A stretch of 64,000 nucleotides of DNA from an uncultured virus (IMG/VR IMGVR_UViG_3300037189_025930) (IMGVR_UViG_3300037189_025930); one strand, 5' to 3'; positions 22,895-51,074 are shown, counted from the first letter of the stretch. Notes: a model not told the origin generated them from the letters alone. Translations and numbers: made by a program.

Positions 22895-23226
22895 TAATCT
22901 TCCTCAATTAAAAAATATAACGCTTGTAAATCAACAGGTGAAATCTCTATATTAGAATTAATAATATCAGATTTTTTAATTTTTTCAAAACTGTTTATAT
23001 CAATCGTTGTTTCTCTTAAAAATTTTTCAAATTGTTCTTGTTTATTCTCTTCACCATAATCTTCTAAAATCTTCTTTTGTACGATAGTAATATTATCATA
23101 CTCATTTTGTATTTGCTTTAAAAGTTTTAAAAACTTAAAAGCAAAAGAGGAATTCATTTTTTGAGAAAAAACATTGTCTAAACTTTGTTTTACGGTAACT
23201 AAATGAATTAATTTTATATTGTCCAT
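22894..23226 (-). CDS. hypothetical protein
   Basis: coupled ORF between DnaE-C and the ThyA-fold gene. Confidence 0.6.
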   Translation of the reverse strand: MDNIKLIHLVTVKQSLDNVFSQKMNSSFAFKFLKLLKQIQNEYDNITIVQKKILEDYGEENKQEQFEKFLRETTIDINSFEKIKKSDIINSNIEISPVDLQALYFLIEED

Positions 23227-25256
23227 GAATAGAAATCTCCATTTTTTTTAATTTTTGCTTTATAAGATAATCCATCTTCAAAATTAACAGATATATCCCA
23301 TAAAAATATACTACACTTATTTCCGTTATTTAAATCGATAATTGATAATATCTTATATGGTTTTCCTGCCTTCTTAGTTTTAGCGCTTCTTTTAGAAACA
23401 ACTGTAAAAGCACATATTCCAAAATTACCATCTTCAATAGAATCAATAGAAATTGTATTTATTATATCTTGCTTATCTATAGATGAATAAGATATATTAC
23501 AATTTATTGCTTCCCTTTCTCGATTTAAAAAATCTCTTTTAGTCCATCTTAAAGTATTAGACTCACCTTTAATAGAACAATACTGTTCATAACAATCTTT
23601 TGGATCTTCGTCAAAAGCATTACTAAAAATTAGATTTTCAATAACTTTTTTATTAACGACTCTTTTACCTTTCATTCGAGATAAGAAATTTTGAAAACTT
23701 GTGTATTCTCCATTATCTCTTTCTTTTACTATTTCATCAGCTGCTTTATCCATTCCTGTAATATAACTCAAACCATATCTAATTACAAGTTCTGATTCTT
23801 TGATAAAAAACAAATGACTCTTATTAACATCTGGTTTTAAAAAGTCAATCTTACTTTCAGAGATAGCAGATGAAACATAATTATTAACATCGTCTTTACT
23901 TCCAGTATTTAATGCCCCTAACCAAAATTCAGTTGGATGATAATATTTTTGATATAATTGGTTATAAGAAACAAAAGAATATGCTACTGAATGTATAACT
24001 GAAAATAAGTATGTACTTCCAATAATAAACCAGTTCAATATTCCTTTTTCTGGTAATGGTAAAAATCCTCTTTTATCTAATTCAAAATTAATAAACTTTT
24101 TACCAATTTCGCCTATATCTTCTTCACTTAAAAAAGGAATTAGATATTTACTAAGAATATCTATCATGTCTGTGTGCCATGCTCGTAGTAACTCTGGCTT
24201 GCCTTGAAGAGAATCAACTAATCCATGCTTGCCCACGAATTTAGATAATTTTTTTCTAACTGAATTACCATCTCCAAAAGAATATTTTTCTTTTGATATT
24301 TTTTGAATCATAGAACTTAATTGTTCTTGATAAATAAGAACACCGTAAGTTGGTTTCAAGATTGGATATATAGTTTGAAAAAGATCTTCACTAATTTCAG
24401 ACCTAAGAGATGAAATCCATTCAGCTTCTTGTGAATTACTTAGAATTTTATATTTTTCATACATCGCTCTTCCACCTTCTGTTCCCATTTGACGAATCAT
24501 ACCAGAAGCGTTACTAAGATCATAAATACTTTCCATTTTTAAATCTGTAAAAGATCTTTTTCCAAGTGGACTTTCAAATTGAAAAATATTTTTATGATGT
24601 CCTTTTTTACAAATAGAAAATGGTTCTAAATTGACTTTATAATCTTCATAATATTTTTTATCACCTAATAAATATTTAACATATAGAACTTGTGAAAGAG
24701 CAGTTACTCCTAATAAATCATATTTAATAAAACCACAAACATCTTGTAATTCATCCTTATCATATAAAGTTGCTGGTATTCCACTATGACTTCTTTGTAA
24801 TGGAACATATTTTTGTAAAGGATAATCTTCTCCGCTAATTACAACTCCTCCAGCATGAACTCCAAAATTAGAAGTTACACCAACTATTTGAGAAGCTATT
24901 CTTACTGCTTCTGGATAATTTCTATTATATTCACTAAAAACTTTTGACCTTTTGATATTTTCTTCAATAGAATAATTATCATCTATTTCTTTCGTCACCG
25001 CAAAAGTTTCACTAGGAGGTATATTATAAGTTCTAGCAATATCCCTTAGTGCACTTTTAATAGAATAAATTGTTCTTACACCAACTAGTGCAAAATGAAT
25101 ATTTCCATCTCGATTATATTTTTTAGATAGATGTTGTAATATATAGTCTCTACCTTTATTTGTTAAAGGATTATTAGAGAAGTCAATATCAGCATCTATA
25201 AAGTCCATACCTGCTTCCCTAAGAAAAACATTTCTCTTAGACACTATTCTGGCCAT
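23214..25256 (-). CDS. dnaE: DNA polymerase III alpha, C-terminal part (palm, fingers, HhH)
   Basis: DADIDF, GVHAGGVVI, IKYDLLGV, IFQFES, TYGVLIYQEQ, HSVAYS, PDVNKS, IRYGLSYI. Confidence 0.93.
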   Translation of the reverse strand: MARIVSKRNVFLREAGMDFIDADIDFSNNPLTNKGRDYILQHLSKKYNRDGNIHFALVGVRTIYSIKSALRDIARTYNIPPSETFAVTKEIDDNYSIEENIKRSKVFSEYNRNYPEAVRIASQIVGVTSNFGVHAGGVVISGEDYPLQKYVPLQRSHSGIPATLYDKDELQDVCGFIKYDLLGVTALSQVLYVKYLLGDKKYYEDYKVNLEPFSICKKGHHKNIFQFESPLGKRSFTDLKMESIYDLSNASGMIRQMGTEGGRAMYEKYKILSNSQEAEWISSLRSEISEDLFQTIYPILKPTYGVLIYQEQLSSMIQKISKEKYSFGDGNSVRKKLSKFVGKHGLVDSLQGKPELLRAWHTDMIDILSKYLIPFLSEEDIGEIGKKFINFELDKRGFLPLPEKGILNWFIIGSTYLFSVIHSVAYSFVSYNQLYQKYYHPTEFWLGALNTGSKDDVNNYVSSAISESKIDFLKPDVNKSHLFFIKESELVIRYGLSYITGMDKAADEIVKERDNGEYTSFQNFLSRMKGKRVVNKKVIENLIFSNAFDEDPKDCYEQYCSIKGESNTLRWTKRDFLNREREAINCNISYSSIDKQDIINTISIDSIEDGNFGICAFTVVSKRSAKTKKAGKPYKILSIIDLNNGNKCSIFLWDISVNFEDGLSYKAKIKKNGDFYSWTI

Positions 25257-29119: not shown

Positions 29120-30769
29120 TTAAATATCTAAATCGTCTTCTTCTGTAATATCTTTAACTAATTTCTGTGATCCATTTTTTAATTTAATCATATCTTTTGG
29201 TTTTAAATCTAAAATTCTTCCATCATCTAAATTAAGTCTTATTCTTTCAGCATCATTAGCGCTCTTCTTATCGTTAATAAATCTTTCAAATGGAAAATTC
29301 CACTCTACTGGATCAACTCTTGTTAGACCAAGAATATAAAAAATAAGACTCGCACCAGCACTACCTCTACCAGGACCAACTGGTATATCTTCGTTTTTTG
29401 CAAAATCAATAATTTCTTTTAATAATAAAATATAAGAACTTAATCCGCCATTTTTAATAGCTAAAAATTCTTTTTTAAAGCGTTCCGTATATATTTTATC
29501 TTTATCTAAATTTAATTTTTTAAGTCCATCTAAACAAATATCAAAAAGTCTTTCATTACTATTATCATATATTGGTAATTTAAGATCGTTATCCCATTCC
29601 CATTCTTCTATTTTTTCTAAAATATTTTTATTATTTTCAATTGCTTCATCTATCACTGGTCTTAATTCTGGAAACTGAAAAGCGTGTACTACTAATTCTC
29701 TTTGATTTTTAAAAGAAAGATCTGCACTTTCAATCATCCAAACTTTATTAGTTTCTTCAATTTTTTTAATCCAAAAATCCCATTTATCTTCTTCATTCAC
29801 AACTCCAATTTTTTTAGATATTCTAAGATTTTCTTTAATATCTTCTAATTTAACTCCATTAAATTCTTCGCCTTTATCAAGTTTTTTTCTTCGAGTTTCA
29901 CCTTTAGAAGTTTCATAAGTAATTCTCCAAATCTTTTTACCTATATCTTCTACTTTTTGTTCACCTTGAAGAAGAAGAAAAATTTCATGGCTCTTAGAAT
30001 AATCATTATTAAGATAATGAGAATCAGTACCCATAACTAATTGAATATTACTTTTTTTAGAAAGATCAATTAATTTTTTATTTACAAATCTTTGTTCTTC
30101 TAATTCGTGTGGTTGAATTTCTAAATACCAATCATCTCTAAGTTCTTCTTTCATAATATTTGCATGATCATAAGCAAAATTATCTTTTCCATTTAAATAA
30201 TCTTTGGGTATAACTCCGCTTAAACAAGAACTTGTAACTATTAAACCTCTATCTCCATTTTTATCTTTTGGAACACTAAATAATTCTTTAAGAGTTATTA
30301 AAGGCTTAAAATAAAATCCAGATAAAGATCCTATGTTATGTAATTGTAAAAGATTTCTTAAACCGTGTTCATTCTTGGCTAAAACTATGAGATGATTATA
30401 TCTTTTAATTTCTTCAAATTCATAATTAAGATTTCTGATTTCTTCATCTACATTCTTTTTTTCATCTTTAGACAAACCAGTTAATTCTTTGAGTTCTTCA
30501 AGTTTTTTTCTAATTTCAAATAATCTTTCTCTTTGTAAAGAAAGATAAAATTCAACCCCATAAACTGGTTTTATTTTATGTTTTTTAGCACTTCGATAAT
30601 ATTGAACAATACCTGCTCCCCAACCATGATCAGTTAAAGAAAAGGACATATTATTTTTAGAACAAATTTTTGCCATCTCATCTATCGATGCAGTACAATC
30701 TCTTACTGATCCAACGTTAGAGTGACAATGGAGAGAAAGAAATGGCCTTGAACTATTTTTATTTTCCAT
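29120..30769 (-). CDS. dnaE: DNA polymerase III alpha, N-terminal part (PHP domain)
   Basis: LHCHS, LTDHG, GVEFY, HLIVLAKN, TDSHY, VGPGRGSAGASL, VDP...FERF. Confidence 0.93.
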   Translation of the reverse strand: MENKNSSRPFLSLHCHSNVGSVRDCTASIDEMAKICSKNNMSFSLTDHGWGAGIVQYYRSAKKHKIKPVYGVEFYLSLQRERLFEIRKKLEELKELTGLSKDEKKNVDEEIRNLNYEFEEIKRYNHLIVLAKNEHGLRNLLQLHNIGSLSGFYFKPLITLKELFSVPKDKNGDRGLIVTSSCLSGVIPKDYLNGKDNFAYDHANIMKEELRDDWYLEIQPHELEEQRFVNKKLIDLSKKSNIQLVMGTDSHYLNNDYSKSHEIFLLLQGEQKVEDIGKKIWRITYETSKGETRRKKLDKGEEFNGVKLEDIKENLRISKKIGVVNEEDKWDFWIKKIEETNKVWMIESADLSFKNQRELVVHAFQFPELRPVIDEAIENNKNILEKIEEWEWDNDLKLPIYDNSNERLFDICLDGLKKLNLDKDKIYTERFKKEFLAIKNGGLSSYILLLKEIIDFAKNEDIPVGPGRGSAGASLIFYILGLTRVDPVEWNFPFERFINDKKSANDAERIRLNLDDGRILDLKPKDMIKLKNGSQKLVKDITEEDDLDI

Positions 30770-39869: not shown

Positions 39870-40176
39870 TTCGACTTTTAATCTTAAAAGTAAAATTACC
39901 CTTTAACTTAGGTCCACTAAAAACTATCCCCTCACGAATCTTTTTTTCTTCCCACTCCTTAACACGAGATCGTCGAGAACTCTTCAATCGACCAGAAATA
40001 TCAATAGAACAAAATTTTCGATAATCTAAAAATTCCTCAATAGAAATCGTTTCGTAACCAGCCAGTCGTCTCTTGTAATTATGACAGTGATAAGAATTCA
40101 TCAACTTATTCCGATCTCGATATCCCTTCATCTGTAAATTGTACTCTTCCTTAGTTTTCTTCTTACTTCTTTTCAT
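39853..40176 (-). CDS. basic hypothetical protein
   Basis: AAGGAG RBS; downstream of the promoter at about 40200-40235. Confidence 0.6.
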   Translation of the reverse strand: MKRSKKKTKEEYNLQMKGYRDRNKLMNSYHCHNYKRRLAGYETISIEEFLDYRKFCSIDISGRLKSSRRSRVKEWEEKKIREGIVFSGPKLKGNFTFKIKSRIAAEF

Positions 40177-40304
40177 ACTATTCTCCTTACATAATTCTAT
40201 TCTATACTACTAAGAAATAAGTGTTTAAACCTAAAAGTATATCCAACTAGAATAGAAAACAGAAAAAATAGACTCCATAGAATCAGTTTAAATCACTAAA
40301 TCAC

Positions 40305-41045
40305 TCAAAAATACGCATCGATTAGATATAGCCTATTTTTAAGCCCAGCCTACTGGTATATTTTGCATATAAATAGATAGTATAGAATAGAATAAAAAAA
40401 CCAAAAAAAAGACTCCATAGAATCAGTTTAGATTTTGAAATCACCAAAAAACGTGCTCCGGTTAGATATAGCCTATTTTTAGTCCCAGCCTACTGGTATA
40501 TTTCCTATATATTTTTTTCTTGGAATCACTCCATAATATAGAATAAATTAAAATGATTACCATTTGTAAATCCCCGAAAAATACGCTTGGGTTAGATATA
40601 GCCGAATTTTGAGCCCAGCCTACTGGTATATTTTGCCTATATTTTTTATAATAATTTGTAGTAGTAGAATCGTTTATAGTTTTAGAATCATTAAAATAGT
40701 AGAATCGTTTATAGTTTTAAAATCCTGAGAAAATATGCTTGGGTCTAATATAGCCTATTTTTAGTCCCAGCCTACTGGTATATTTCGTAGTATAGAATAA
40801 GATTAAAAAATTAGAATCAGTTTATAATTAGTTTATAGTAGTGAAATCAGTTTATAGTTTAGAATCATGAAAAAATACGCTTAGGTCTAATATAGCCTAT
40901 TTTTAGTCCCAGCCTACTGGTATATTTTGCATATATTTTTTTTAGGATTATCGTTCCTTATGAATTTTAGAATCATTCAAAAATACGCTTGGGTCTAATA
41001 TAGCCGAAAAATGAGCCCAGCCTACTGGTATATTTTGCCTATATT
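40305..41045. repeat. six-copy non-coding direct repeat of about 60 bp
   Basis: invariant core CCCAGCCTACTGGTATATTT at 40344, 40484, 40614, 40766, 40908, 41016, preceded by ATATAGCC. Confidence 0.95.
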
Positions 41046-41131
41046 TTTTATATAGTTTTTAGGTTTTTTATTATATTAGATTTTATTAATTTAGTGTTTT
41101 TAATTTTTGGGATTTTTAAAAAAACTAAAAA

Positions 41132-41159
41132 AAAAGTAGAGTCTTACGACTCTACTTTT
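41132..41159 (-). terminator. intrinsic terminator
   Basis: AAAAGTAGAGTC-ttac-GACTCTACTTTT. Confidence 0.8.
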
Positions 41160-41167
41160 GGGATTTA

Positions 41168-41695
41168 TTATACTTCTTTCCAAATATTTATTTTTTCTTT
41201 GTAAGAATATTTAGAGAAGAAATTTTCAAGATTTTCTAAATTTTCTTGTATTTCGTAAAATAATTCAAATATTTTTTTTGTATTTCTAATTACGAAGAAA
41301 TTTTCGGGATTTTGAATAGACTGAAATTTATATACAGGCCATTCTTGAATATTTCTAGTAATAGAGAATTGGGATTTTACTAAATTTTGAATACTTTTCA
41401 TATTGGGTTGAGAAATATTTGAGTATTCTCTTTTTTCGGGATTTACAAAATTCTTTTTAGTTACAGAATTAAAAATATCTAAAAATTCTTTTGGGTTTTC
41501 ACAAATATATTCTAATCCGCGATTATATATTTCTTGTAATAAATATTTTTGGGATTCTTCGATTGTAGAAAATTCTTTATCGCCGATTTTGTAAGTAATT
41601 TGAATATTCATAGTATTCTCTCTATTATTTTTATTTGAAAAGAAATTTTCAGAAATTTTATTTTCTTTTTTTATTTCTAAATTTTCTCTTTTCAT
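41168..41695 (-). CDS. KVGDKE/WPVY family protein (SD-led start 41611)
   Basis: YKIGDKEFSTIEE and WPVY motifs. Confidence 0.8.
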   Translation of the reverse strand: MKRENLEIKKENKISENFFSNKNNRENTMNIQITYKIGDKEFSTIEESQKYLLQEIYNRGLEYICENPKEFLDIFNSVTKKNFVNPEKREYSNISQPNMKSIQNLVKSQFSITRNIQEWPVYKFQSIQNPENFFVIRNTKKIFELFYEIQENLENLENFFSKYSYKEKINIWKEV

Positions 41696-41864
41696 ACTAC
41701 TAATATATAATTTTTTTAAGTAATAGAAAAAACCTGAAAATTTTACTATTTGAATTTTTTAACTATATTTTAGGTTTTTTCTTTTGTATCTAAATGTTAT
41801 ATATTATCAGTATGAAAAGAAAAAATAAACACTTTTCAAATACAAAAAAAAGAGAGAACAGAAT

Positions 41865-42293
41865 ATGAACATAGAAAACAGTTACAAAGTCGGTGATAAG
41901 ACTTTCACAAACCTAAAAGATGCTCAGAAGTATATAATTGAAATCATGTACTCTAATGGATTAGATTGGATCTTAGAGAATCCCACAGATTTTTCAGAAG
42001 CTTTATTTCAATATAAAGAAGTTAAGCCCGTAAGAAAATCAAGTCCAGTACAGAAATCAGTTATTAATCCTGGAGCAAAAGGAGATTTAGCGGGGATTGT
42101 AGAACTCCTTAAAACAAAATACTCTGTAAAAAGAGATGCTACCCATTGGCCAGTATATCACTTTGATGGTATCGGAGAAAATGGATCTTTTTCGATAAGA
42201 TTTATTGGAAAAGTGTGGGAGCTTTATAATTTAGTTGCAGAAAATCTTGAAAATATTGAAGTTACTTTAGACAAATATAAAGTTAATAAATAA
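41865..42293 (+). CDS. KVGDKE/WPVY family protein
   Basis: YKVGDKTF, HWPVY, FSIRFIGKVWEL. Confidence 0.85.
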   Translation: MNIENSYKVGDKTFTNLKDAQKYIIEIMYSNGLDWILENPTDFSEALFQYKEVKPVRKSSPVQKSVINPGAKGDLAGIVELLKTKYSVKRDATHWPVYHFDGIGENGSFSIRFIGKVWELYNLVAENLENIEVTLDKYKVNK

Positions 42294-42300
42294 AATCTTG

Positions 42301-42330
42301 AAAAAATAGAATCTTCGGATTCTATTTTTT
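42301..42330 (+). terminator. intrinsic terminator, UUCG loop
   Basis: AATAGAATC-ttcg-GATTCTATT followed by T-run. Confidence 0.85.
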
Positions 42331-42410
42331 TTAATTCATTCAAAATTTTTGGGATTTGTAAAAAAAATAAAAAAAAAGTAGAATCTTTTAGGTTCTACTT
42401 TTTTAATCTT

Positions 42411-42686
42411 CTAGGTTATCTTGACCCTAGTGACTTTAATTTCCAACCTCTTAGAGGTGACCTTAGTTGTCCAGTGATACGCTGATTTATAACCAGTTCG
42501 GGAGAATGTTAGTGATTTAAAATCATACAAGGTAAGAGAATTAAAGAGTGCAATTCTGATGTCTCTCTGAAAAGTCAGCGCTAATCTTCTTGTAGGGAAT
42601 TCTAAGAAGAATGTTTTTATGGTTTCTCTTTTATTAGAGAACCTCTCAGTATTCAATTTTTTGAATTTTATTTTTTTTCTTTTCAT
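42411..42686 (-). CDS. cassette hypothetical protein (internal start appears as ATA)
   Basis: own promoter and terminator; GAGAAACC-ATA where other cassettes have SD-ATG. Confidence 0.6.
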   Translation of the reverse strand: MKRKKIKFKKLNTERFSNKRETIKTFFLEFPTRRLALTFQRDIRIALFNSLTLYDFKSLTFSRTGYKSAYHWTTKVTSKRLEIKVTRVKIT

Positions 42687-42846
42687 AGTAAAAATATAAT
42701 TCTTTTTTATTTTATTTTAAAAACCTAAAAATTTTGTATTATTTATTTCTTATTTTTTAGGTTTTTTTGTTTATATAAAAATTTTTGGGATTTGTAAAAA
42801 AAATAAAAAAAAAGTAGAATCTAAAAGATTCTACTTTTTAGGATTA

Positions 42847-43323
42847 TTATTCGGTGTCTAGAGGTATTCCGTATCCTCTTAGAACATCTATGTCACTTTC
42901 TACAACGAGGTTATAAAGACTTTCGACCCCATATACATACCTTATGATAAAGAAGTCGCTGCTGGTGGATACGAAGTACATCGATGGTGCATATAAGGAA
43001 TGTACTGATTCTCCTTTTCTATATGGATTGATTTCAGCGTTCCTCTCAAGGTGTTTATTGAGGTCTTCAAGTGTTTTACCTGTTCTACGAGGTTCTGGTA
43101 CTAGAACTCTAAGGTTGCCGATTAATTCTTCCATGTTTTCGACGATATAATCCACACCGCATTGAGTGATTAGTTCTACGATTTGAGCAGCTGTTTCTTT
43201 GTTATACTGATCTAGAGTTTCAGCGTTTTGAGGTTTTATATTATAAGTGATCATTTGATCTCCAAGTATTTTATTTGAAAAGAAATTTAAAATATTTTTT
43301 AGTAGTAAATTTTTTCTTTTCAT
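42847..43323 (-). CDS. diverged WPVY-family protein (SD-led start 43254)
   Basis: GVDYIVENMEELIGNL, GKTLEDLNKHLE, FIIRY. Confidence 0.75.
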   Translation of the reverse strand: MKRKNLLLKNILNFFSNKILGDQMITYNIKPQNAETLDQYNKETAAQIVELITQCGVDYIVENMEELIGNLRVLVPEPRRTGKTLEDLNKHLERNAEINPYRKGESVHSLYAPSMYFVSTSSDFFIIRYVYGVESLYNLVVESDIDVLRGYGIPLDTE

Positions 43324-43435
43324 AGTAGAATAATATTCTTTTTTTATTTATTTAAAAAAACCTAAAAATTCTATAATATTTATTTCTTAGTTTTTAGGTT
43401 TTTTTTATTATTTAGAAAAATTATATATTACTATT

Positions 43436-43831
43436 ATGAAAAGAAAAAATTATTCTACTAAAATTTTCAATTCAAATAAAATACTTGGAGACACCTCTAT
43501 GGTAACGCTCAATAAAGAAAATCTTTACTTCCTGGAAACAGAAGACTTAACAGCAGATGATGTAGCATGTGATTCTCAATCACTAAGAAGGATGAGAGAC
43601 ACCGGATTAACAATGGATTCTACAATCCAAGAAATCATTGAAGTAATCACTGCAAAAGGTTTTAAACCATCACTTATCGAAACTCAAAACATCGACGTTA
43701 ATTGTACACTCGAACACTTAGTATCCAATGTGGATGGATTTGAAGAATGGGAAATCTTTGAGAACGTAATCTTGTACACTGGAGAAGATATAGAACTAAG
43801 ACTAGAGAACATTGGAGAAGATGAAGATTAA
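43436..43831 (+). CDS. acidic cassette protein (SD-led start 43499), paralogue of 44520..44840
   Basis: MVTLNKENLYF, TIQEII, EWEIFENV. Confidence 0.75.
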   Translation: MKRKNYSTKIFNSNKILGDTSMVTLNKENLYFLETEDLTADDVACDSQSLRRMRDTGLTMDSTIQEIIEVITAKGFKPSLIETQNIDVNCTLEHLVSNVDGFEEWEIFENVILYTGEDIELRLENIGEDED

Positions 43832-43930
43832 ATAACATCAAGAATCCATTCGTAAGGATGGATTCTTTTTTTTATATTTCAAAAATTTTTAGGTTTTTTC
43901 TTTTCTCTCAAAAAATTATATATTACTACT

Positions 43931-44340
43931 ATGAAAAGAAAAAATTCTATATTACAAAATTTTTCAATTCAAAAAAATTCTATTGGAGATAGAACTATGG
44001 AAGTTAAAGATTATTCTTTAAATATAAATGGACAGGATGTGGTTTTTGAAAATCATCCAGCTTGGGAAGATAGCATCAAGGCTGTAATAAAATTCGCAAA
44101 TGGATACAGTGCTTCGATAATCACGAAAAGAAGCGGAGCAGATCAATCATACAGTTCTTGTCTTGGTCAGCGGGTGGAAGTTGGGACAAGATGACTTTTG
44201 AAGTTGCACTTTTAAAAGATGGACAATTTATCTTTGATGAAGAAATTGAAGATGAAGAATATAGAGAAGAAGGTGGGGTTTGGAAAAATATCCATCTAGA
44301 AGATATGAACGAAATCTTGAGTATTATCAAAAATCGTTAA
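43931..44340 (+). pseudogene. cassette gene broken by a 5-bp duplication; homologue of 52135..52452
   Basis: TCTTG duplicated at 44156-44165; removing one copy fuses ORFs 43931 and 44158. Confidence 0.75.
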
Positions 44341-44441
44341 TCTTGAGTAGAAACCTCTTCGAAAGGAGAGGTTTCTTTTTTTTAATTTCAAAAAAATTTT
44401 TGGGTTTTTTATTTTTCTCTCAAAAATTTTATATTACTACT

Positions 44442-44840
44442 ATGAAAAGAAAAAATTTACTACTAAATAAAATTTCTAGTAAAATTCTCTTTTCAAATAA
44501 AATTCTACTTGGAGACACCATGATTACACTTAATTCGACTAACACTTACTTCTTTGACCTCGAGAAACACAACGTCGACCCTGTAACAGCAACTGTATCA
44601 ACTCATCACCGACAAAATTGGGAAGACATGGGAAACATAGATGATCTCACAATCGCAGAAGTAATCATAGAACTTCAGGAGAGAGGTTTAGATCCAATAA
44701 TCTCTGAACAGTATGAAGATCGTGAAGAAATCTTGAACATGAAATATCTAGATGTTACTAATCTAGATGAATATGATTGGGACATCTTCCATAACATAGC
44801 ACTCTCTTGGGGATACATGCTCAACAACGAATGGGAGTAA
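44442..44840 (+). CDS. acidic cassette protein (SD-led start 44520)
   Basis: MITLNSTNTYFF, TIAEVI, DWDIFHNI. Confidence 0.75.
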   Translation: MKRKNLLLNKISSKILFSNKILLGDTMITLNSTNTYFFDLEKHNVDPVTATVSTHHRQNWEDMGNIDDLTIAEVIIELQERGLDPIISEQYEDREEILNMKYLDVTNLDEYDWDIFHNIALSWGYMLNNEWE

Positions 44841-44963
44841 GGACTTTTAAACCTCTTCGAAAGGAGAGGTTTCTTTTTATTTATATGAAAAATTTTTAGG
44901 TTTTTATTTTATATTAAAAAAATAGTATTCTATTAATATAGAAATAAAAAAAATGGAGACAAT

Positions 44964-45305
44964 ATGGTTAATACATCTGAAATAATTATTCTCAAAGGTA
45001 CTTGTGGAAAATTATCAGTTACTTGTCAGTACCAAGAGAATTATAATTGGGAAGGTGAAGGCGATGGTTCACCTCGTTGGAAAATGAAAGGTGGAGACTC
45101 TTTTATTATAGATCCAGCGGACATCAAGAAGTTTGTGAACGATCCAAAAATTATCTATGAAGATAAAGTACAAAGACAGTACATTTGTCACTCAGAGATA
45201 TTACAAGAGGATTTCGTATTTGAAATACCTGATTACGTAGATCCTACAGATCGTGAATGGTACATAGGAGCTTTTTGTCCACAGATTTGGCCTAAGGTCG
45301 AATAG
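44964..45305 (+). CDS. cassette hypothetical protein
   Basis: promoter, GGAGAC SD and terminator; QYQENY...PRWKMKGGD. Confidence 0.75.
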   Translation: MVNTSEIIILKGTCGKLSVTCQYQENYNWEGEGDGSPRWKMKGGDSFIIDPADIKKFVNDPKIIYEDKVQRQYICHSEILQEDFVFEIPDYVDPTDREWYIGAFCPQIWPKVE

Positions 45306-45495
45306 TAACTAAGGGGTTGAAAAGCCCCTTCTTTTATCGTAATTATTCTTTTATCGTAATTATTCTCTCTAAGTAAAACTTCTCGGGGATCGAAAGATCC
45401 CTATTTTTTTATTATGTTAAAAATTTTGGGATTTTATTTTTTAAAAAAAATGTTTAAAAAAAAAGTGGCTCCTTGCGGAGCCACTTTTTTGGGTT

Positions 45496-45972
45496 TTACT
45501 TCTTGTACTGCTTCAAGGAATCGATCCCTTGTTCTACTATTAGGGAGTGTAATTCCCACACCTTGCCAGTGAATCTTATTACGAAAGATTCAGAAGGAGT
45601 GTTAATGGTGTAGACTGGCCAATCAACTGTTGATCTTACTACTGATGATCCACTTTTTTCGAGGTGATCATTTATGTCTTTTAAGTTCCCTTTGCCAGTG
45701 TTGCTGTACTTAATCCCAGCCAGTGCTTTTAGGTTCTTGATAAATGTCTCACTGTTCTCTATAATGTGATCCACACCTTCACTTAACATTGCCTCTATTG
45801 CGAATTGTGCTACATATGCGTTAGCTGATTCAATTGAGGAGAATTCTTTATCTCCAACTTTGTAAGATTTAGTTGCTGTAATGTTCATTTTAGTCTCCAT
45901 GACTTTTTTTATTTGAAAAGTAAAATTTATTTTAGTAGAATTTTTTTCTAGTAGTAAATTTTTTCTTTTCAT
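45496..45972 (-). CDS. KVGDKE/WPVY long form, copy 1 (SD-led start 45888)
   Basis: near-identical C-terminal half to 47350 and 49835. Confidence 0.85.
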   Translation of the reverse strand: MKRKNLLLEKNSTKINFTFQIKKVMETKMNITATKSYKVGDKEFSSIESANAYVAQFAIEAMLSEGVDHIIENSETFIKNLKALAGIKYSNTGKGNLKDINDHLEKSGSSVVRSTVDWPVYTINTPSESFVIRFTGKVWELHSLIVEQGIDSLKQYKK

Positions 45973-46166
45973 ACTACTACAATACTACTTTTCTAACTTA
46001 TTTCAAAAACCTAAAAATTATATATACTTAATTTTATTTCTTAGTTTTTAGGTTTTTTATTTTATTTCAATAAATAGTATTCTATTAATATGAAAAGAAA
46101 AAAAAGAATATTAAAAAAATTCTCTCTTTTCTTCTCAAATAAAACTAAAATCGTGGAGACGATACT

Positions 46167-46349
46167 ATGGAAATCAAAGCAACTAAAATATTTAAAGTAG
46201 GGGACAAAGAATACTCCTCTAGAGAAGAAGCAATCACAGCAGCCGCAATGGATATTCTTCATACAGAAATCCCACTTGGCATCGACAACGTGATCGCCAA
46301 GAGTGGGGATATTATCAAGGCTCTTCAAGTAGTAGGGAAGAAGAAGTAA
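46167..46349 (+). CDS. KVGDKE short form type J, copy 1
   Basis: FKVGDKEYSSREEA...IPLGIDNVIAKS. Confidence 0.85.
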   Translation: MEIKATKIFKVGDKEYSSREEAITAAAMDILHTEIPLGIDNVIAKSGDIIKALQVVGKKK

Positions 46350-46446
46350 AACAACAAGAGAGAGGTCAAAAGATCTCTCTCTTTTTTATTATCTGTTTTA
46401 TTTTTAGGTTTTTTAATATATTAGAAAAAATTATATATTTATTATT

Positions 46447-46848
46447 ATGAAAAGAAAAACTTCTAATATATTAGAATTTTCAAAAAATGGAGATGAAACT
46501 ATGAAAACACTACAACCATCCCTACAAAGGGCTCTTCGAAAGATTGGGTTCAAGAAAGTAAAGTCAACAGGGTTCCTTGGAATGAAAGGTGGAGAGTATG
46601 GTCCAATGACAATAACTGATGCTTATCTAAGACACAATAAAGAGGTTGCTTTTGAGGTTAAGATTGGATTAATTCAAGAATTGAAGTTAACCACTGATAT
46701 GGAATTTAACTTTAACGAGAAATCACAGTACGAGTTCACTTTATCTTTAACTAGAAAGACAGTTTCTGAAACATTCGGATTCTACTTTTGTCCAGTAACT
46801 GAAAAAGGTTATCAAAACTACTACCTAACCTTTATAAATCTTTCTTAA
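46447..46848 (+). CDS. cassette hypothetical protein (SD-led start 46501)
   Basis: own promoter, GGAGA SD and GAAA-loop terminator. Confidence 0.75.
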   Translation: MKRKTSNILEFSKNGDETMKTLQPSLQRALRKIGFKKVKSTGFLGMKGGEYGPMTITDAYLRHNKEVAFEVKIGLIQELKLTTDMEFNFNEKSQYEFTLSLTRKTVSETFGFYFCPVTEKGYQNYYLTFINLS

Positions 46849-46937
46849 TAAGGAAAGGGTCGAAAGACCCTTTTTTTTTTATTTCTATAAAATTTTTAGG
46901 TTTTTTCTTTTCTATTAAAAAATAGTATTCTATTAAT

Positions 46938-47195
46938 ATGAAAAGAAAAGAAAGAATACTAAAAAACTCTCTCTTTACTTCTCAAATAAAATTAAATCGT
47001 GGAGACGATACTATGGAAATTTCAATAACAAAAGTTTATACAGTAGGTGGAAAAGAGTTTTCTACAAAAGAAGAAGCATTCAGAGAAACAGCAATCGAGA
47101 TTCTCAGAAAGCACGTAAGTAGTGAGCAAGAAGTAAAGGCTCTCGTAGAGAACGCAGATGAAGTGAGAAGAGCACTAGCAATTCTCAAGAAGTAA
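46938..47195 (+). CDS. KVGDKE short form type L, copy 1 (SD-led start 47013)
   Basis: YTVGGKEFSTKEEA...NADEVRRALAILKK. Confidence 0.85.
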   Translation: MKRKERILKNSLFTSQIKLNRGDDTMEISITKVYTVGGKEFSTKEEAFRETAIEILRKHVSSEQEVKALVENADEVRRALAILKK

Positions 47196-47349
47196 AAAAG
47201 TAAAGAGAGGGATCGAAAGATCTCTCTCTTTTTTTATGTCCGCTTAGTTTTTTGGATTTGACAATTAAAAAAAATAAAAAAAATTTTTGGGATTTTAAAA
47301 AAAATGTTTAAAAAAAAAGTGACTCCTTGCGGAGCCACTCTTTTGGGAT

Positions 47350-47829
47350 TTACTTCTTGTACTGTTTCAAGGAATCGATCCCTTGGTTCACGATCATCGC
47401 GTGGAGTTCCCACACTTTGCCTACGAATCTGATTGCGAAAGATTCAGAAGGAGTGTTGATGGTGTAGACTGGCCAATCAACTGTTGATCTAACCACTGAT
47501 GAACCCTGCTTTTCTAGGTGATCATTGATGTCTTTCAAGTTCCCTTTGCCTACATTGGTATACTTGATGTTAGATACGATTTTCAGTTGCTTGATGAATT
47601 CTGCACTGTTTTCTACGATATAATCAACTCCCTCTTTTAGCATTGCCTCTACTGCGAATTGTGCTACGTACGAGTTTGCTGCTTCTAGGGTTGAAAATTC
47701 TTTGTCCCCTACTTTGTATGATTTAGCTGCTTTGATTTCCATTTTAGTCTCCATGACTTTTTTTATTTGAAAAGTAGTAGAATTATTTTCAGAAATTTTA
47801 TTTTCTAAGAATACTTTTTTTCTTTTCAT
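47350..47829 (-). CDS. KVGDKE/WPVY long form, copy 2 (SD-led start 47742)
   Basis: paralogue of 45496. Confidence 0.85.
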   Translation of the reverse strand: MKRKKVFLENKISENNSTTFQIKKVMETKMEIKAAKSYKVGDKEFSTLEAANSYVAQFAVEAMLKEGVDYIVENSAEFIKQLKIVSNIKYTNVGKGNLKDINDHLEKQGSSVVRSTVDWPVYTINTPSESFAIRFVGKVWELHAMIVNQGIDSLKQYKK

Positions 47830-47997
47830 ACTACTACAATACTACTTTTCTAAGTTATTTAAAAAACCTAAAAATTTAGTATATAGTAGTATAGAATTTT
47901 TAGGTTTTTTCTTTTCTCTTGAAAAATTATATATTACTATTATGAAAAGAAAAAATATTCTCAAAAATACTTTTCAAATAAATCGTGGAGATAAAAA

Positions 47998-48438
47998 ATG
48001 AGTGAATTAACTAAAGAACAACTAAAGCAAAAGCTTCTTACAGATGACAAAGCTTTAATAGCAGCATTAGTAGCGTTAAATGGTTGTCAAACAGAAGAGG
48101 AAGTTGCCTCTGGAAGAACTATTGATAGAAATGGTATGGGGTTCAGATCTTTCGATTCTAAGGTCGGTAGTGGAATGGTTAAGTTCTATAAGAAGACTGG
48201 ATTCTTAACTCCTAAGCAAATCGAGTATTGGAAGAAAAAAGATGTTAGAGGTAAAGAAAGAATTATTTGTTACCTCAACCAACTCCATACTTTACACCTC
48301 AGAAAGAGACAAGAGATAGAAAGCAATAAACGTGAAACACAAGAAGCACCTCCAATACATAAGCATGTAGAGCAAGAAGAAAGGAGTGGACTTAATTCAA
48401 AATATCCACTAGGTTCTAGACTTAGGAACGGGTTTTAA
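47998..48438 (+). CDS. conserved phage hypothetical protein
   Basis: QTEEE...NGMGFRSFD...FLTPKQ; own promoter and terminator. Confidence 0.75.
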   Translation: MSELTKEQLKQKLLTDDKALIAALVALNGCQTEEEVASGRTIDRNGMGFRSFDSKVGSGMVKFYKKTGFLTPKQIEYWKKKDVRGKERIICYLNQLHTLHLRKRQEIESNKRETQEAPPIHKHVEQEERSGLNSKYPLGSRLRNGF

Positions 48439-48528
48439 ACCCGTTTTTTTTTATGTTTAATTAATTTTTGGGTATTGACATTTAATGAACATAAAATAAT
48501 GGAGTAAAAATACTCCATTTCCTTAGTA

Positions 48529-48903
48529 CTAGATGTATATCTCCATGTCCTTATTAGTAGTCTCAACGATCTTCTTAATCTTTGGATGAAGAATAACATC
48601 TAGTGGTTTCTTATCTTCCACTGTTCGGTGCCAAGATATGTGTTGTGAATTGTAGAGGTATTTGTTTTCAGAAGTTCCAGGTGTTGAATAATATCCAAAG
48701 TCTTCGTGATACTTAATAGATCCAGAGTTCACTAAAAGATTAATAGAGTTACAACTATATCCTCTTGAAACTTCTCCCTTTTTTAAATCTTTCTTTTTGA
48801 TACCTCTAGAAAGAGTATACATCTTTTCTTGAACACCCTTAAAAGTAAGTACATTTGTTTCAAGGTATTTTACTAATCTTCTAGCAATGTTTTTATTTTT
48901 CAT
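48529..48903 (-). CDS. cassette hypothetical protein, possibly winged-helix
   Basis: own promoter, AAGGAG SD and terminator. Confidence 0.7.
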   Translation of the reverse strand: MKNKNIARRLVKYLETNVLTFKGVQEKMYTLSRGIKKKDLKKGEVSRGYSCNSINLLVNSGSIKYHEDFGYYSTPGTSENKYLYNSQHISWHRTVEDKKPLDVILHPKIKKIVETTNKDMEIYI

Positions 48904-49081
48904 TGATTAAATCTCCTTTTTGTGTTAAATAAAATTCAATATGAAAATCTTTTATTTTCATATTAATATAATATTTCTTTTTTAATTTAATGCAAAAACC
49001 CAAAAACTAAATTGTACTAATTTTTTATTTAAGAATTTTTTAGGTTTTTTATTTTATTTCAATAAATAGTATTCTATTAAT

Positions 49082-49348
49082 ATGAAAAGAAAAAGAATAC
49101 TACTAGAGAATACTTCTCAAAGTAAAGTTCTTTACTTCTCAAATAAAACTAAAATCGTGGAGACGAACATGCAAATAACAACAACTAAAGTATTTAAAGT
49201 CGGTGACAAAGAGTATTCTTCTAAAGAAGAAGCAATCAAAGCAGCAGCAATGGATATTCTTCACTCAGAAATCCCACTCGGCATCGACAATGTGATCGCC
49301 AAGAGTGCAGAGATTATAAAGGCTCTTCAAGTAGTAGGGAAGAAGTAA
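49082..49348 (+). CDS. KVGDKE short form type J, copy 2 (SD-led start 49169)
   Basis: paralogue of 46167. Confidence 0.85.
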   Translation: MKRKRILLENTSQSKVLYFSNKTKIVETNMQITTTKVFKVGDKEYSSKEEAIKAAAMDILHSEIPLGIDNVIAKSAEIIKALQVVGKK

Positions 49349-49442
49349 GACAAAAGGGGAGATCGAAAGATCTCCCTTTTTTTTATTTCTATAAAATTTT
49401 TTGGGTTTTTTCTTTTCTATTGAAAAATAGTATTCTATTAAT

Positions 49443-49700
49443 ATGAAAAGAAAAGAAAGAATACTAAAAAACTCTCTCTTTACTTCTCAAATAAAAACAA
49501 GTCATGGAGACTACAAAATGAATATATCAGTAACTAAAGTTTACACAGTGGATGGAAAGGAATTCTCTTCTAAAGAAGAAGCAATCAGAGCAACTGCGGT
49601 TGGGATTCTGAAGAAGCACGTAAGTAGAGATCAAGAAGTACAGGCTCTCTTAGACAACGCAGACGAAGTGAGAAGAGCACTAGCAATTCTCAAAAAGTAA
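49443..49700 (+). CDS. KVGDKE short form type L, copy 2 (SD-led start 49518)
   Basis: paralogue of 46938. Confidence 0.85.
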   Translation: MKRKERILKNSLFTSQIKTSHGDYKMNISVTKVYTVDGKEFSSKEEAIRATAVGILKKHVSRDQEVQALLDNADEVRRALAILKK

Positions 49701-49834
49701 AACAGCAAAGAGAGGGATCGAAAGATCTCTCTCTCTTTTTTTTTTATGTCCGCTTAGTTTTTGGGATTTGACATTTAAAAAATAAAAAAAAACATAAAAA
49801 AAAGTGACTCCTTGCGGAGCCACTCTTTCGTGAT

Positions 49835-50311
49835 TTACTTCTTGTACTGCTTGAGAGAATCCAATCCTTGTTCTACGATCAGGGAGTGTAGTTCCCATAC
49901 TTTGCCTACGAACCTTATTACGAAAGATTCAGAAGGAGTATTGATGGTATAGACTGGCCAATCAACTGAAGATCTAACCACCGAGGAACCGCTTTTTTCA
50001 AGGTGTTCGTTGATGTCTTTCAAGTTCCCTTTGCCTACGTTAGTGTACTTGATGCCTGCTAGTACTTTGAGGCTTTTTATGAATGCTTCGCTGTTTTCGA
50101 TGATGTGATCTACACCTTCGTTTAAGTGAGCTTCAACTTCAATTTTAGCCACGTGTGCGTTTGCTGCTTCGAGAGAGGTGAATTCAAGATTCCCTACTTT
50201 GTAAGATTTAGTTGCTGTAATGTTCATTTTAGTCTCCATGACTTTTTTTATTTGAAAAGTAAAATTCAATATAGTAGAAGTTTTTTCTAGTAGTAGAATT
50301 TTTCTTTTCAT
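49835..50311 (-). CDS. KVGDKE/WPVY long form, copy 3 (leader ATG 50311, SD-led start 50227)
   Basis: paralogue of 45496 and 47350; the track start at 50353 lies inside the promoter. Confidence 0.85.
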   Translation of the reverse strand: MKRKILLLEKTSTILNFTFQIKKVMETKMNITATKSYKVGNLEFTSLEAANAHVAKIEVEAHLNEGVDHIIENSEAFIKSLKVLAGIKYTNVGKGNLKDINEHLEKSGSSVVRSSVDWPVYTINTPSESFVIRFVGKVWELHSLIVEQGLDSLKQYKK

Positions 50312-50424
50312 AATAGTAGAATATACTTTTTTGAGTATTTTAAAAAAACCCAAAAATTCTATATATTACTATAACTATTTTTTTAGGTTTTTTATTCTCT
50401 GTAAAAAAGTAGTATTCTATTAAT

Positions 50425-50838
50425 ATGAAAAGAGAAAAAATATTCAAAAACACTTTTACTACTTTTCAAATAAATAACTCTCATGGAGACGAGAACATGA
50501 CAATTACATCTATCAAAGACAAATTATTTGGAACAGCAGAAGAATCCATTAACCCTATCGAAATGGCATTAGCAACTATAGAACCTCCAGTTGAAACCAT
50601 GAAATACACGGTTGAAGCATCTTCACAAGTTACTCCAACAGTAAAAGTTGCTCCAGTTGCAATTTCTATATCAAAGGTTTTCAAAGTAGGTGATAAAGAG
50701 TATGCATCAAAAGAAGAAGCAATCATAGCAGCAGCAATGGAAACACTTCATTCAGAAATCCCTCTTGGCATCGATAACGTAATTGCTAAGAGTGTGGATA
50801 TTATCAAGGCTCTTCAAGTAGTAGGGAAAAAGAAGTAA
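50425..50838 (+). CDS. KVGDKE short form type J, copy 3, with N-terminal extension (SD-led start 50497)
   Basis: C-terminal 60 aa paralogous to 46167. Confidence 0.85.
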   Translation: MKREKIFKNTFTTFQINNSHGDENMTITSIKDKLFGTAEESINPIEMALATIEPPVETMKYTVEASSQVTPTVKVAPVAISISKVFKVGDKEYASKEEAIIAAAMETLHSEIPLGIDNVIAKSVDIIKALQVVGKKK

Positions 50839-50845
50839 ATCAGTA

Positions 50846-50875
50846 AGAGGGAGGTCGAAAGATCTCCCTTTTTTT
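50846..50875. terminator. bidirectional terminator closing the array
   Basis: AAGAGGGAGGTC-gaaa-GATCTCCCTTTT. Confidence 0.8.
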
Positions 50876-51074
50876 ATGTTCTATTAGTTTTATGAAGTTT
50901 ATTAGCGAAATTTATTGCATCTCTATCTCTAACAAAAACACCAAACTCTTCTAATATTGAATTTAGCTGTCTTTGATCTATTTTGAATTCCCATAAGATC
51001 ATCTTTTTAGTTTGACCATCGTTAATTCTTTTTAGGATTTTTTGTTTTAGTTCTGGTGTAAATTGTTTTTTCAT
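50874..51074 (-). CDS. small HTH DNA-binding protein
   Basis: FTPELKQKILKRINDGQTKKMILWEFKIDQRQLNSIL. Confidence 0.6.
   Translation of the reverse strand: MKKQFTPELKQKILKRINDGQTKKMILWEFKIDQRQLNSILEEFGVFVRDRDAINFANKLHKTNRT

Follow-up and report, generated by a model that had tools for sequence, protein, structure and literature searches.

A repeated leader in a jumbo phage gene array whose reading frame stays open from a predicted 5'-terminal AUG to a Shine-Dalgarno-led start

Messengers that carry an AUG at the very 5' end together with a Shine-Dalgarno (SD)-led start further downstream have been described in Escherichia coli (Beck, Fleming & Janssen 2016, PMC4965119). For these 5'-uAUG mRNAs, the portion of that paper drawn on here reports both 70S binding and translation of the 5' upstream open reading frame (uORF); the mRNAs act as both leaderless and canonical, several of the uORFs overlap the downstream start (one of them as an ATGA), and the roles proposed are ribosome loading, coupling and mRNA protection. 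In the same portion the genes are presented as scattered and single, and the in-frame cases are said to have been deliberately excluded (PMC4965119). What 5'-terminal AUGs do on SD-led mRNAs is not settled and, going by that exclusion, the in-frame cases are unstudied. These mRNAs are the closest known phenomenon to an array of small gene cassettes found in a stretch of 64,000 nucleotides from an uncultured virus (IMG/VR IMGVR_UViG_3300037189_025930), here called the window. Like them, 17 of the 18 phage cassettes combine a predicted 5'-terminal AUG with an SD-led start. The phage case is different in that a conserved module stands before 18 genes, mostly in frame with them, with comparative evidence for selection and a 5' hairpin inside the frame that is kept, and in that several plainly leaderless-looking genes are found in the same genome; it is known here from sequence alone.

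Naturally leaderless mRNAs include that of lambda cI transcribed from pRM and mycobacterial transcripts. The cassettes resemble them in having the predicted transcription start site on the A of an AUG devoid of SD, a layout also seen in five long open reading frames (ORFs) of the phage. Nonetheless, a classical leaderless mRNA begins with an unstructured 5' end and offers a single start, whereas the cassettes have a structured stretch of 54-87 nt and then a second, SD-led start. Two in-frame starts that give a long and a short form are also known from phage genes such as lambda S105/S107 and the two-polypeptide endolysins, but there a leadered mRNA carries both starts internally, separated by anything from a few codons to a domain, the extension is functional, and no module is shared. 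The host-takeover module of SPO1, with its clustered small early genes and their own strong promoters, is similar in that the phage array, too, lies close to a genome end and is made up of small ORFan genes that have a promoter and a terminator each; as far as the literature was searched, no 5'-AUG leader is described for SPO1-type modules. A search of open-access papers and bioRxiv turned up no phage cassette that combines a 5' AUG with an in-frame leader. Finally, 5'-terminal stem-loops that stabilise mRNA are reportedly associated with work of Emory and colleagues from 1992. The predicted phage hairpin is like these stabilisers in starting at nucleotide 2 and leaving one 5' base unpaired, but the known ones are untranslated, while that of the phage is part of a reading frame that is maintained.

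The window corresponds to positions 9629-73628 of the record, read on the minus strand; the record is a jumbo phage genome of 290,274 bp with 25.6% G+C and 81-bp exact terminal repeats, whose genes include a split DNA polymerase III (PolIII) alpha, a DnaB-like helicase, UvdE, thymidylate synthases and a sigma-like ORF. Genome-wide, 38% of the first ATGs have an SD-like motif before them against a background of 6.8%, which indicates that the host uses SD initiation. The cassette array (window 41611-50497, genome 23-32 kb) comprises small ORFan genes on both strands, and each gene comes with a promoter-like module of its own and with a strong intrinsic terminator; terminator-like sites number 23 in this region against 3.4 expected. 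Cassettes are named by the window position of their first ATG (ATG1), and their coordinates are given in Table 1. An earlier note, made by a model from the sequence of the window, had counted 18 cassettes with ATGAAAA where the transcript should start, placed 6 nt past a -10 box in those it measured. The 18 are confirmed: the context of ATG1 is ATGAAAA(G/T)A in all of them, the -10 hexamer TAnnnT is present in 18/18, and the spacing between hexamer and ATG1 is six nucleotides (N6) in 17 and seven (N7) in cassette 46447. Seventeen carry ATGAAAAGA and one (48961-) carries ATGAAAATA. There are 22 copies of ATGAAAAGA in the window against 3.76 expected, and 17 of its 30 copies genome-wide fall within genome 23.2-31.9 kb. 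The cassette alignment is invariant at T-12, A-11, T-10, T-7 and T-1, with A at the predicted +1, and no GGA or GAG (and hence no SD) is found in the 20 nt upstream of ATG1 in any of the 18. The transcript is predicted to begin at the A of ATG1.

The central observation concerns the reading frame that ATG1 opens. No leader closes before the real start: where an SD-led second ATG (ATG2) is present, in 17 cassettes, the ATG1 frame reaches it without a stop (0 in 17/17), compared with 26 stops (forced TGA excluded) and 31 stops in the other two frames. Thirteen of the 17 leaders are in frame with ATG2 and fused to the gene; they measure 54-87 nt, in agreement with the 18-29 codons claimed in the earlier note, and together with 42686-, a 91-residue ORF read from ATG1, they account for its 14 in-frame fusions. 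The four out-of-frame leaders (41812, 47942, 48961 and 46090) all run to or beyond ATG2, the uORF ending on the main start as an ATGA in 41812 and 47942, 11 nt past it in 48961 and 31 nt past it in 46090. The note had listed the last three, with a single ATGA, and had 41812 stopping at once; the latter was a misreading, 41812 being a fourth out-of-frame leader of 18 codons whose TGA makes a second ATGA with ATG2.

That such stop-free leaders are unexpected, as had been proposed, is borne out by dinucleotide shuffles of each leader, in which the open-frame p ranges from 0.04 to 0.54 and 2.98 of 17 leaders are expected to be open against 17 observed. A caveat on paralogy had also been raised, rightly: the leaders form 12 clusters at 80% identity, and the product of the largest p per cluster (multiplied by hand) is about 8e-10. 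The in-frame fusion of 13/17 has a binomial p of 3.4e-4, or 0.009 when counted by unmixed clusters (8/11). To control for the genome as a whole, genes were scored for an in-frame ATG lying 18 codons or more upstream, which is present in 12 of the 16 genes of the cassette region and in 22 of the 194 elsewhere (Fisher 5.8e-8). Codons that are one substitution from a stop make up 45% of the 388 leader codons. The peptide itself is not conserved, just as the note had it: TTTTCAAATAAA is read as FSNK or FQIK and GGAGAC as GD or ET, and the frame giving TAA never occurs. The offset of the TCAAATAA box modulo 3 is 0 in nine cassettes, 2 in seven and never 1, the offset that would place TAA in frame, and the distances from the box to ATG1 and to ATG2 covary modulo 3, with 13 of 16 summing to zero.

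Homologues from other metagenomes show the same arrangement. Among 40 cluster representatives of the 45972 family (58-97% identity), an in-frame MKRK leader is present in 33, in 29 distinct versions of 27-36 codons, and all five representatives of the 43436 family, three of them at only 30-37% identity, have an in-frame MK(R/E)K leader of 21-33 codons. The two homologues of 46447 are one long and one short. In close relatives the leaders differ by indels of -11, +1 and +2 codons, all in frame. A tally of 53 distinct leaders, one row of which (P0012) was misassigned by the regular expression, includes all four combinations of box reading (SNK-type, QIK-type) and SD reading (GD, ET). At the level of sequence comparison, the relatives settle the selection question in favour of an open in-frame leader kept by selection. 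The earlier suggestion that selection acts on translatability, not on the peptide, is thus supported by leaders that are stop-free in spite of their near-stop codons, by the modulo-3 covariation, and by in-frame leaders with codon-sized indels in homologues of 30-90% identity.

By its own signals, ATG2 is also a start. GGAGA or GAGAG lies 9-13 nt before it in 17 of the 18 cassettes, the homology between paralogues (34-47% identity) begins at the Met of ATG2, which is invariant, and the four out-of-frame cassettes can produce their protein only from ATG2. Cassette 44964, which lacks ATG1, has only the SD-led ATG; its leader is short, without hairpin, and its SD GGAGAC leads directly to the ATG at 44964. 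In 42686-, ATG1 would be the only start because the codon equivalent to ATG2 is ATA, and both relatives of this gene are also without Met at this position (Ile or Val). Two further details of the region before ATG2 are that the GGAGA is always preceded by NTG (ATG, GTG or TTG), and that it often lies in the loop of a small hairpin of variable stem, e.g., AUCGU-GGAG-ACGAU or AGUC-AUGGA-GACU, which may be an SD-presenting structure.

Another hairpin is predicted at the 5' end of the transcript. In the best fold of 16 of the 17 leaders, nucleotides 2-8 (UGAAAAG) pair with CUUUUCA just 5' of an A-rich AAAUAAA stretch, enclosing the variable part of the leader, which usually forms extra stems; the mean z of the leader folds against shuffles is -2.4, and the 48961 hairpin contains the compensatory pair AUGAAAAU/AUUUUCAU. 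In the same 16 leaders the hairpin is predicted to leave one unpaired 5' nucleotide, i.e., fewer than two. As stated in the part of a review that deals with these features, BsRppH needs no fewer than two 5' bases to be unpaired, and a 5' hairpin or a ribosome-binding site can stabilise the RNA downstream (PMC3997798); by analogy, the leader hairpin is a plausible mRNA stabiliser. The mean unpaired probability is 0.66 for the SD, which is mostly exposed, and 0.45 for AUG1, which is half masked. A search of Rfam gave 15 matches below the gathering score of the family, all on terminators and none on leaders.

The predicted start site in the cassettes gains support because the leaderless layout recurs at promoters genome-wide. 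A promoter family of 59 sites shares a TTTRGGWTT box, a hexamer 17 bp before the -10 and a TAnnnT exactly 31 nt past the start of the box. Of these, 38 lie outside the cassette region and have a -35 that reads TAAACA, TATACA or TAATCA (examples in the window are 33853-, 40235-, 52055-, 53897-, 59400-, 61524- and 63240+). All cassettes have the layout exemplified by 43888..43930 (Table 1), in which a T-rich stretch replaces the TAAACA of the genome-wide class, and carry TTTTNN at the -35 position. This T-run, set against the genome-wide hexamer, suggests two promoter classes, which perhaps could be two temporal classes. At the 38 non-cassette promoters, no ATG is found at N0-5 past the -10, six, three and two are found at N6, N7 and N8, respectively, and none at N9-14; an ATG at N6 or N7 thus occurs in nine of the 38 (p 4.8e-6). 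Five ORFs of 102-565 residues start 6-8 nt past the -10 with no SD and no SD-led ATG downstream, so that the leaderless layout looks like a regular habit of this phage. Newly described here are the 5'-terminal leader hairpin, the genome-wide promoter geometry, the enrichment of ATG at the predicted +1 and the five long ORFs without SD. Related arrangements also occur outside the array. At window 40176-40235 (-), a promoter of the genome-wide class has an ATG TAA start-stop at the predicted +1, followed by AAGGAGA and the real ATG 16 nt on, and at two more non-cassette promoters the 5' AUG opens a uORF, of 6 and 18 codons, whose stop lies shortly beyond the SD-led start. The possibility suggested by TATATTAC, a promoter for a virion RNA polymerase of the phiKZ type, was considered and dropped: a sigma-like ORF and sigma-70-like two-box promoters are present, and RNA polymerase subunits were not searched for.

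We put the chances slightly above even that the cassettes are one-gene units translated both leaderless from AUG1 and SD-led from AUG2, with the frame between them kept open by selection. The earlier note had proposed the same dual initiation, and its part on translatability is supported; it went wrong on 41812 and missed the 5'-terminal hairpin. Each cassette would be a one-gene transcription unit made of a phage promoter (TTTRGGTTT box, TAnnnT -10), leader, ORFan and intrinsic terminator, in which transcription would begin at the A of ATG1. Some ribosomes would load at the 5'-terminal AUG1 without SD, as on a leaderless mRNA and most plausibly before the 3' arm of the hairpin is transcribed, while others would start at AUG2 behind the GGAGA. 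In the fused cassettes, the product of AUG1 ribosomes would be the same protein extended at its N-terminus by a disordered tail rich in Lys and Asn; in the four out-of-frame cassettes, the uORF ending on or just past AUG2 would permit coupling. A leader free of ribosomes would fold into the 5' hairpin with its one unpaired 5' nucleotide. Selection would hold the ATG1 frame stop-free to AUG2 because AUG1 is used, and an open, mostly fused frame would be selected because a stop or a frameshift would waste the AUG1 ribosomes or make them block AUG2. In an AlphaFold2 model the leader-encoded residues 1-33 are disordered, which fits a tail whose sequence is unimportant. Any benefit to the phage may lie, for example, in robust expression or mRNA protection; ribosome loading, two isoforms and insurance were the possible purposes named in the note. 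A bolder version is tentative and, in our opinion, rather doubtful: a portable module that deliberately combines a leaderless AUG at +1 and an SD-led AUG in one frame, either route giving a working protein and the hairpin protecting the unloaded message, as a hedge against shifts in host translation in the course of infection. If true, the module would hedge against the loss of SD-dependent initiation, against stress, or against defences that attack mRNA 5' ends or the anti-SD, and leaderless initiation would be a regular part of gene expression in this phage and no oddity.

Several points weigh against dual initiation. The main internal argument against efficient leaderless initiation is the predicted masking of AUG1, whose U2 and G3 are paired in 16 of 17 best folds (A1 is free). 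Start-codon accessibility is a known determinant of leaderless initiation, according to the portion of the work cited here (PMC8459731), and for this reason the masking argues against efficient leaderless initiation on the folded RNA; co-transcriptional ribosome loading could bypass it. The conservation of ATG1 is confounded with promoter and hairpin constraints, and the counts over paralogous leaders are not independent. In the most conservative count, only 5 of 8 distinct modulo-3 combinations are in frame, and because of this the window alone is suggestive, not conclusive, for fusion. The cassette promoters are without the -35-like hexamer of the genome-wide class and are not called in a sigma-70 consensus scan. 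Regarding the homologues, their long forms were ascertained via gene callers, which report the long form only if it is open; the 7 short forms among the 40 of the 45972 family are uninformative, one of them being the window's own in-frame gene called at ATG2, and the homologues of the out-of-frame 47942 are all short (5/5).

Other explanations account for parts of the same evidence. The N-terminal tail itself might be selected, in which case the two isoforms would differ, for instance, in stability, localisation or activity, and the frame would be open through selection for the long isoform instead of for translatability as such. The N-terminal MKRK hardly varies, every tail is basic and rich in Lys and Asn, and most cassettes with ATG2 (13/17) are fused in frame. 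We consider this unlikely, since each conserved nucleotide block is read in one or the other of two frames (FSNK/FQIK, GD/ET), the same leader stands on unrelated proteins, four of the leaders are not in frame, disorder is predicted for the tail and one relative does without 11 of its codons; moreover, MKRK results from ATGAAAAGAAAA, a sequence that doubles as an arm of the hairpin. Slightly less probable is that ATG1 is translated on a leadered mRNA whose start site is further upstream, through SD-independent initiation on an A/U-rich leader. The frame evidence requires only that ATG1 be translated and no specific start site, and the lack of a recognisable -35, like the negative consensus scan, speaks for this reading. 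Yet the only invariant -10-like element (T-12, A-11, T-7) is the one 6 nt upstream of ATG1, the alternative TAGGTT varies between A and G at its critical second base, the same geometry with ATG enriched exactly at N6-7 is found genome-wide, and the hairpin is flush with position 2.

Gene callers often choose ATG1, and gene 42686 would work without ATG2, so ATG1 might be the sole working start of the fused cassettes, with GGAGA-ATG2 being vestigial or serving within the gene, for instance as a pause site. This is improbable in view of the GGAGA found 9-13 nt before ATG2 wherever ATG2 exists, the invariance of its Met in paralogues of 34-47% identity, the dependence on ATG2 of the four out-of-frame cassettes and of the ATG1-less 44964, and the genomic excess of SD-like motifs at first ATGs (38% versus 6.8%). 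We give the least credence, and very little, to an untranslated leader whose open frame was inherited from one ancestor and kept by the constraints of promoter, hairpin, A-rich spacer and SD. All leaders are indeed homologous (12 clusters at 80% identity), and a purine-rich 5' arm and a pyrimidine-rich 3' arm cannot form stops in some frames. Structure is frame-blind, yet 57 stop triplets are found in the other two frames and none in that of ATG1, 45% of the leader codons being one change from a stop; the variable parts also differ in sequence and in length (54-87 nt here, 11-36 codons in relatives) and still remain in frame. The frame-specific absence of stops and the in-frame indels of the relatives argue most strongly against it.

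The 18 copies in one genome, together with dozens of diverged relatives, amount to a repeated experiment of evolution in which the frame is kept and the peptide is free. This comparative evidence suggests that, on a leadered mRNA, a 5' AUG is recognised by ribosomes to a degree that influences how the sequence evolves. The ATG1-less cassette, the ATG2-less cassette and the four out-of-frame cassettes provide natural controls. The module is short, a promoter of about 45 nt plus a leader of 54-87 nt, and could serve as a compact expression part. Annotation is affected too, as gene callers do not agree on which of the two starts to assign to a given gene. In a second contig of 290,572 bases, near-identical to this genome, some genes are called at ATG2 that are called from ATG1 in the record of the window, an inconsistency between the two annotations.

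Table 1. Coordinates of the cassette leaders, of an example promoter and of candidate leaderless ORFs (window positions unless stated otherwise; CDS, coding sequence).
Feature	Position	Strand	Description
Example promoter	43888..43930	+	TTTAGGTTT box, T-rich stretch, A-tract, TATATT at -12..-7, N6, ATG1
Leader 41695-	41609..41695	-	ATG1 41695; 84 nt, in frame with ATG2 41611; box variant TTTTCAGG, SD variant GAGAG; CDS 41168-41611
Leader 41812+	41812..41867	+	53 nt, out of frame; 18-codon uORF, TGA overlaps ATG2 41865 (ATGA); CDS 41865-42293
Cassette 42686-	42411..42686	-	91-residue ORF from ATG1; ATA in place of ATG2
Leader 43323-	43252..43323	-	69 nt, in frame; CDS 42847-43254
Leader 43436+	43436..43501	+	63 nt, in frame; CDS 43499-43831
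Leader 43931+	43931..43999	+	66 nt, in frame; CDS from 43997 shortened by frameshift near 44165
Leader 44442+	44442..44522	+	78 nt, in frame; CDS 44520-44840
ATG1-less natural control 44964	44895..44966	+	same box, -10 TATTCT, ATAGAAATA replaces ATGAAAAGA
Leader 45972-	45886..45972	-	84 nt, in frame; CDS 45496-45888
Leader 46090+	46090..46169	+	77 nt, out of frame; 36-codon uORF ends 31 nt past ATG2 46167
Leader 46447+	46447..46503	+	54 nt, in frame, -10 at N7; sole leader without flush 5' hairpin in best fold
Leader 46938+	46938..47015	+	75 nt, in frame; CDS 47013-47195
Leader 47829-	47740..47829	-	87 nt, in frame; CDS 47350-47742
Leader 47942+	47942..48000	+	56 nt, out of frame; 19-codon uORF, ATGA overlap on ATG2 47998
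Leader 48961-	48901..48961	-	ATGAAAATA; 58 nt, out of frame; 22-codon uORF ends 11 nt past ATG2
Leader 49082+	49082..49171	+	87 nt, in frame; CDS 49169-49348
Leader 49443+	49443..49520	+	75 nt, in frame; CDS 49518-49700
Leader 50311-	50225..50311	-	84 nt, in frame; CDS 49835-50227
Leader 50425+	50425..50499	+	72 nt, in frame; CDS 50497-50838
Candidate leaderless helicase, 565 residues, XPD/DinG-like	L261:89-1786 (genome 198648 onward)		Pfam ResIII match from residue 10; in-frame stop 36 nt upstream
Candidate leaderless ORF	L262:230-598	-	6-8 nt past promoter -10, no SD
Candidate leaderless ORF	L263:193-501	-	6-8 nt past promoter -10, no SD
Candidate leaderless ORF	L264:219-542	-	6-8 nt past promoter -10, no SD
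Candidate leaderless ORF, 105 residues	33492..33809	-	start 7 nt past -10 (box 33853), no SD

Among the 15 cassette proteins scanned against PHROG, 14 have no match, and the only match is that of the 47942 protein to phrog_21015, a family of unknown function. The AlphaFold2 model of the 130-residue family, of moderate quality (predicted local distance difference test score 70.7), has no PDB fold match at E <= 0.001. A Sec or lipoprotein signal in the leader peptides was rejected by eye, with no hydrophobic core being seen. At the nucleotide level, megablast of the sequence against phage records gave no match, and the exact cassette patterns gave 3 viral-contig, 89 metagenome and 48 genome matches, all chance-like and none with the box upstream. 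Protein-guided scans of IMG/VR using the 130-residue family, the 43436 family and PolIII alpha found no relatives.

Some minor observations concern the array and its surroundings. The gene of cassette 43931 (window 43997-44340, +) is split by a frameshift near 44160-44175, at the tandem TCTTG TCTTG, and the relative P0053 (134 residues) aligns to it in two frames; either the gene has become a pseudogene, or the split reflects strain variation or an assembly error. PolIII alpha is encoded in two ORFs about 3.9 kb apart, at window 23214-25256 and 29120-30769 (-), one with the PHP domain and the start of the NTPase domain and the other with the remainder. The ORF at window 61458 (-) begins with MKRIFLILVMGWLFNCS, which, read by eye, resembles a lipoprotein signal. 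The terminators in window 41000-51000 are a repeated family with G+C-rich stems and GAAA-type loops, e.g., GGGATCGAAAGATCCC and GTGGCTCCTTGCGGAGCCAC, which suggests duplication of entire promoter-to-terminator units. Next to bidirectional terminators, TTTGGGATTT boxes are found at window 41106, 42348, 42784, 45425, 47286 and 49760 (+); these are possibly antisense promoters. Two of the boxes are followed by TTGTAA-17-TAGAAT, with the -10 within the terminator stem.

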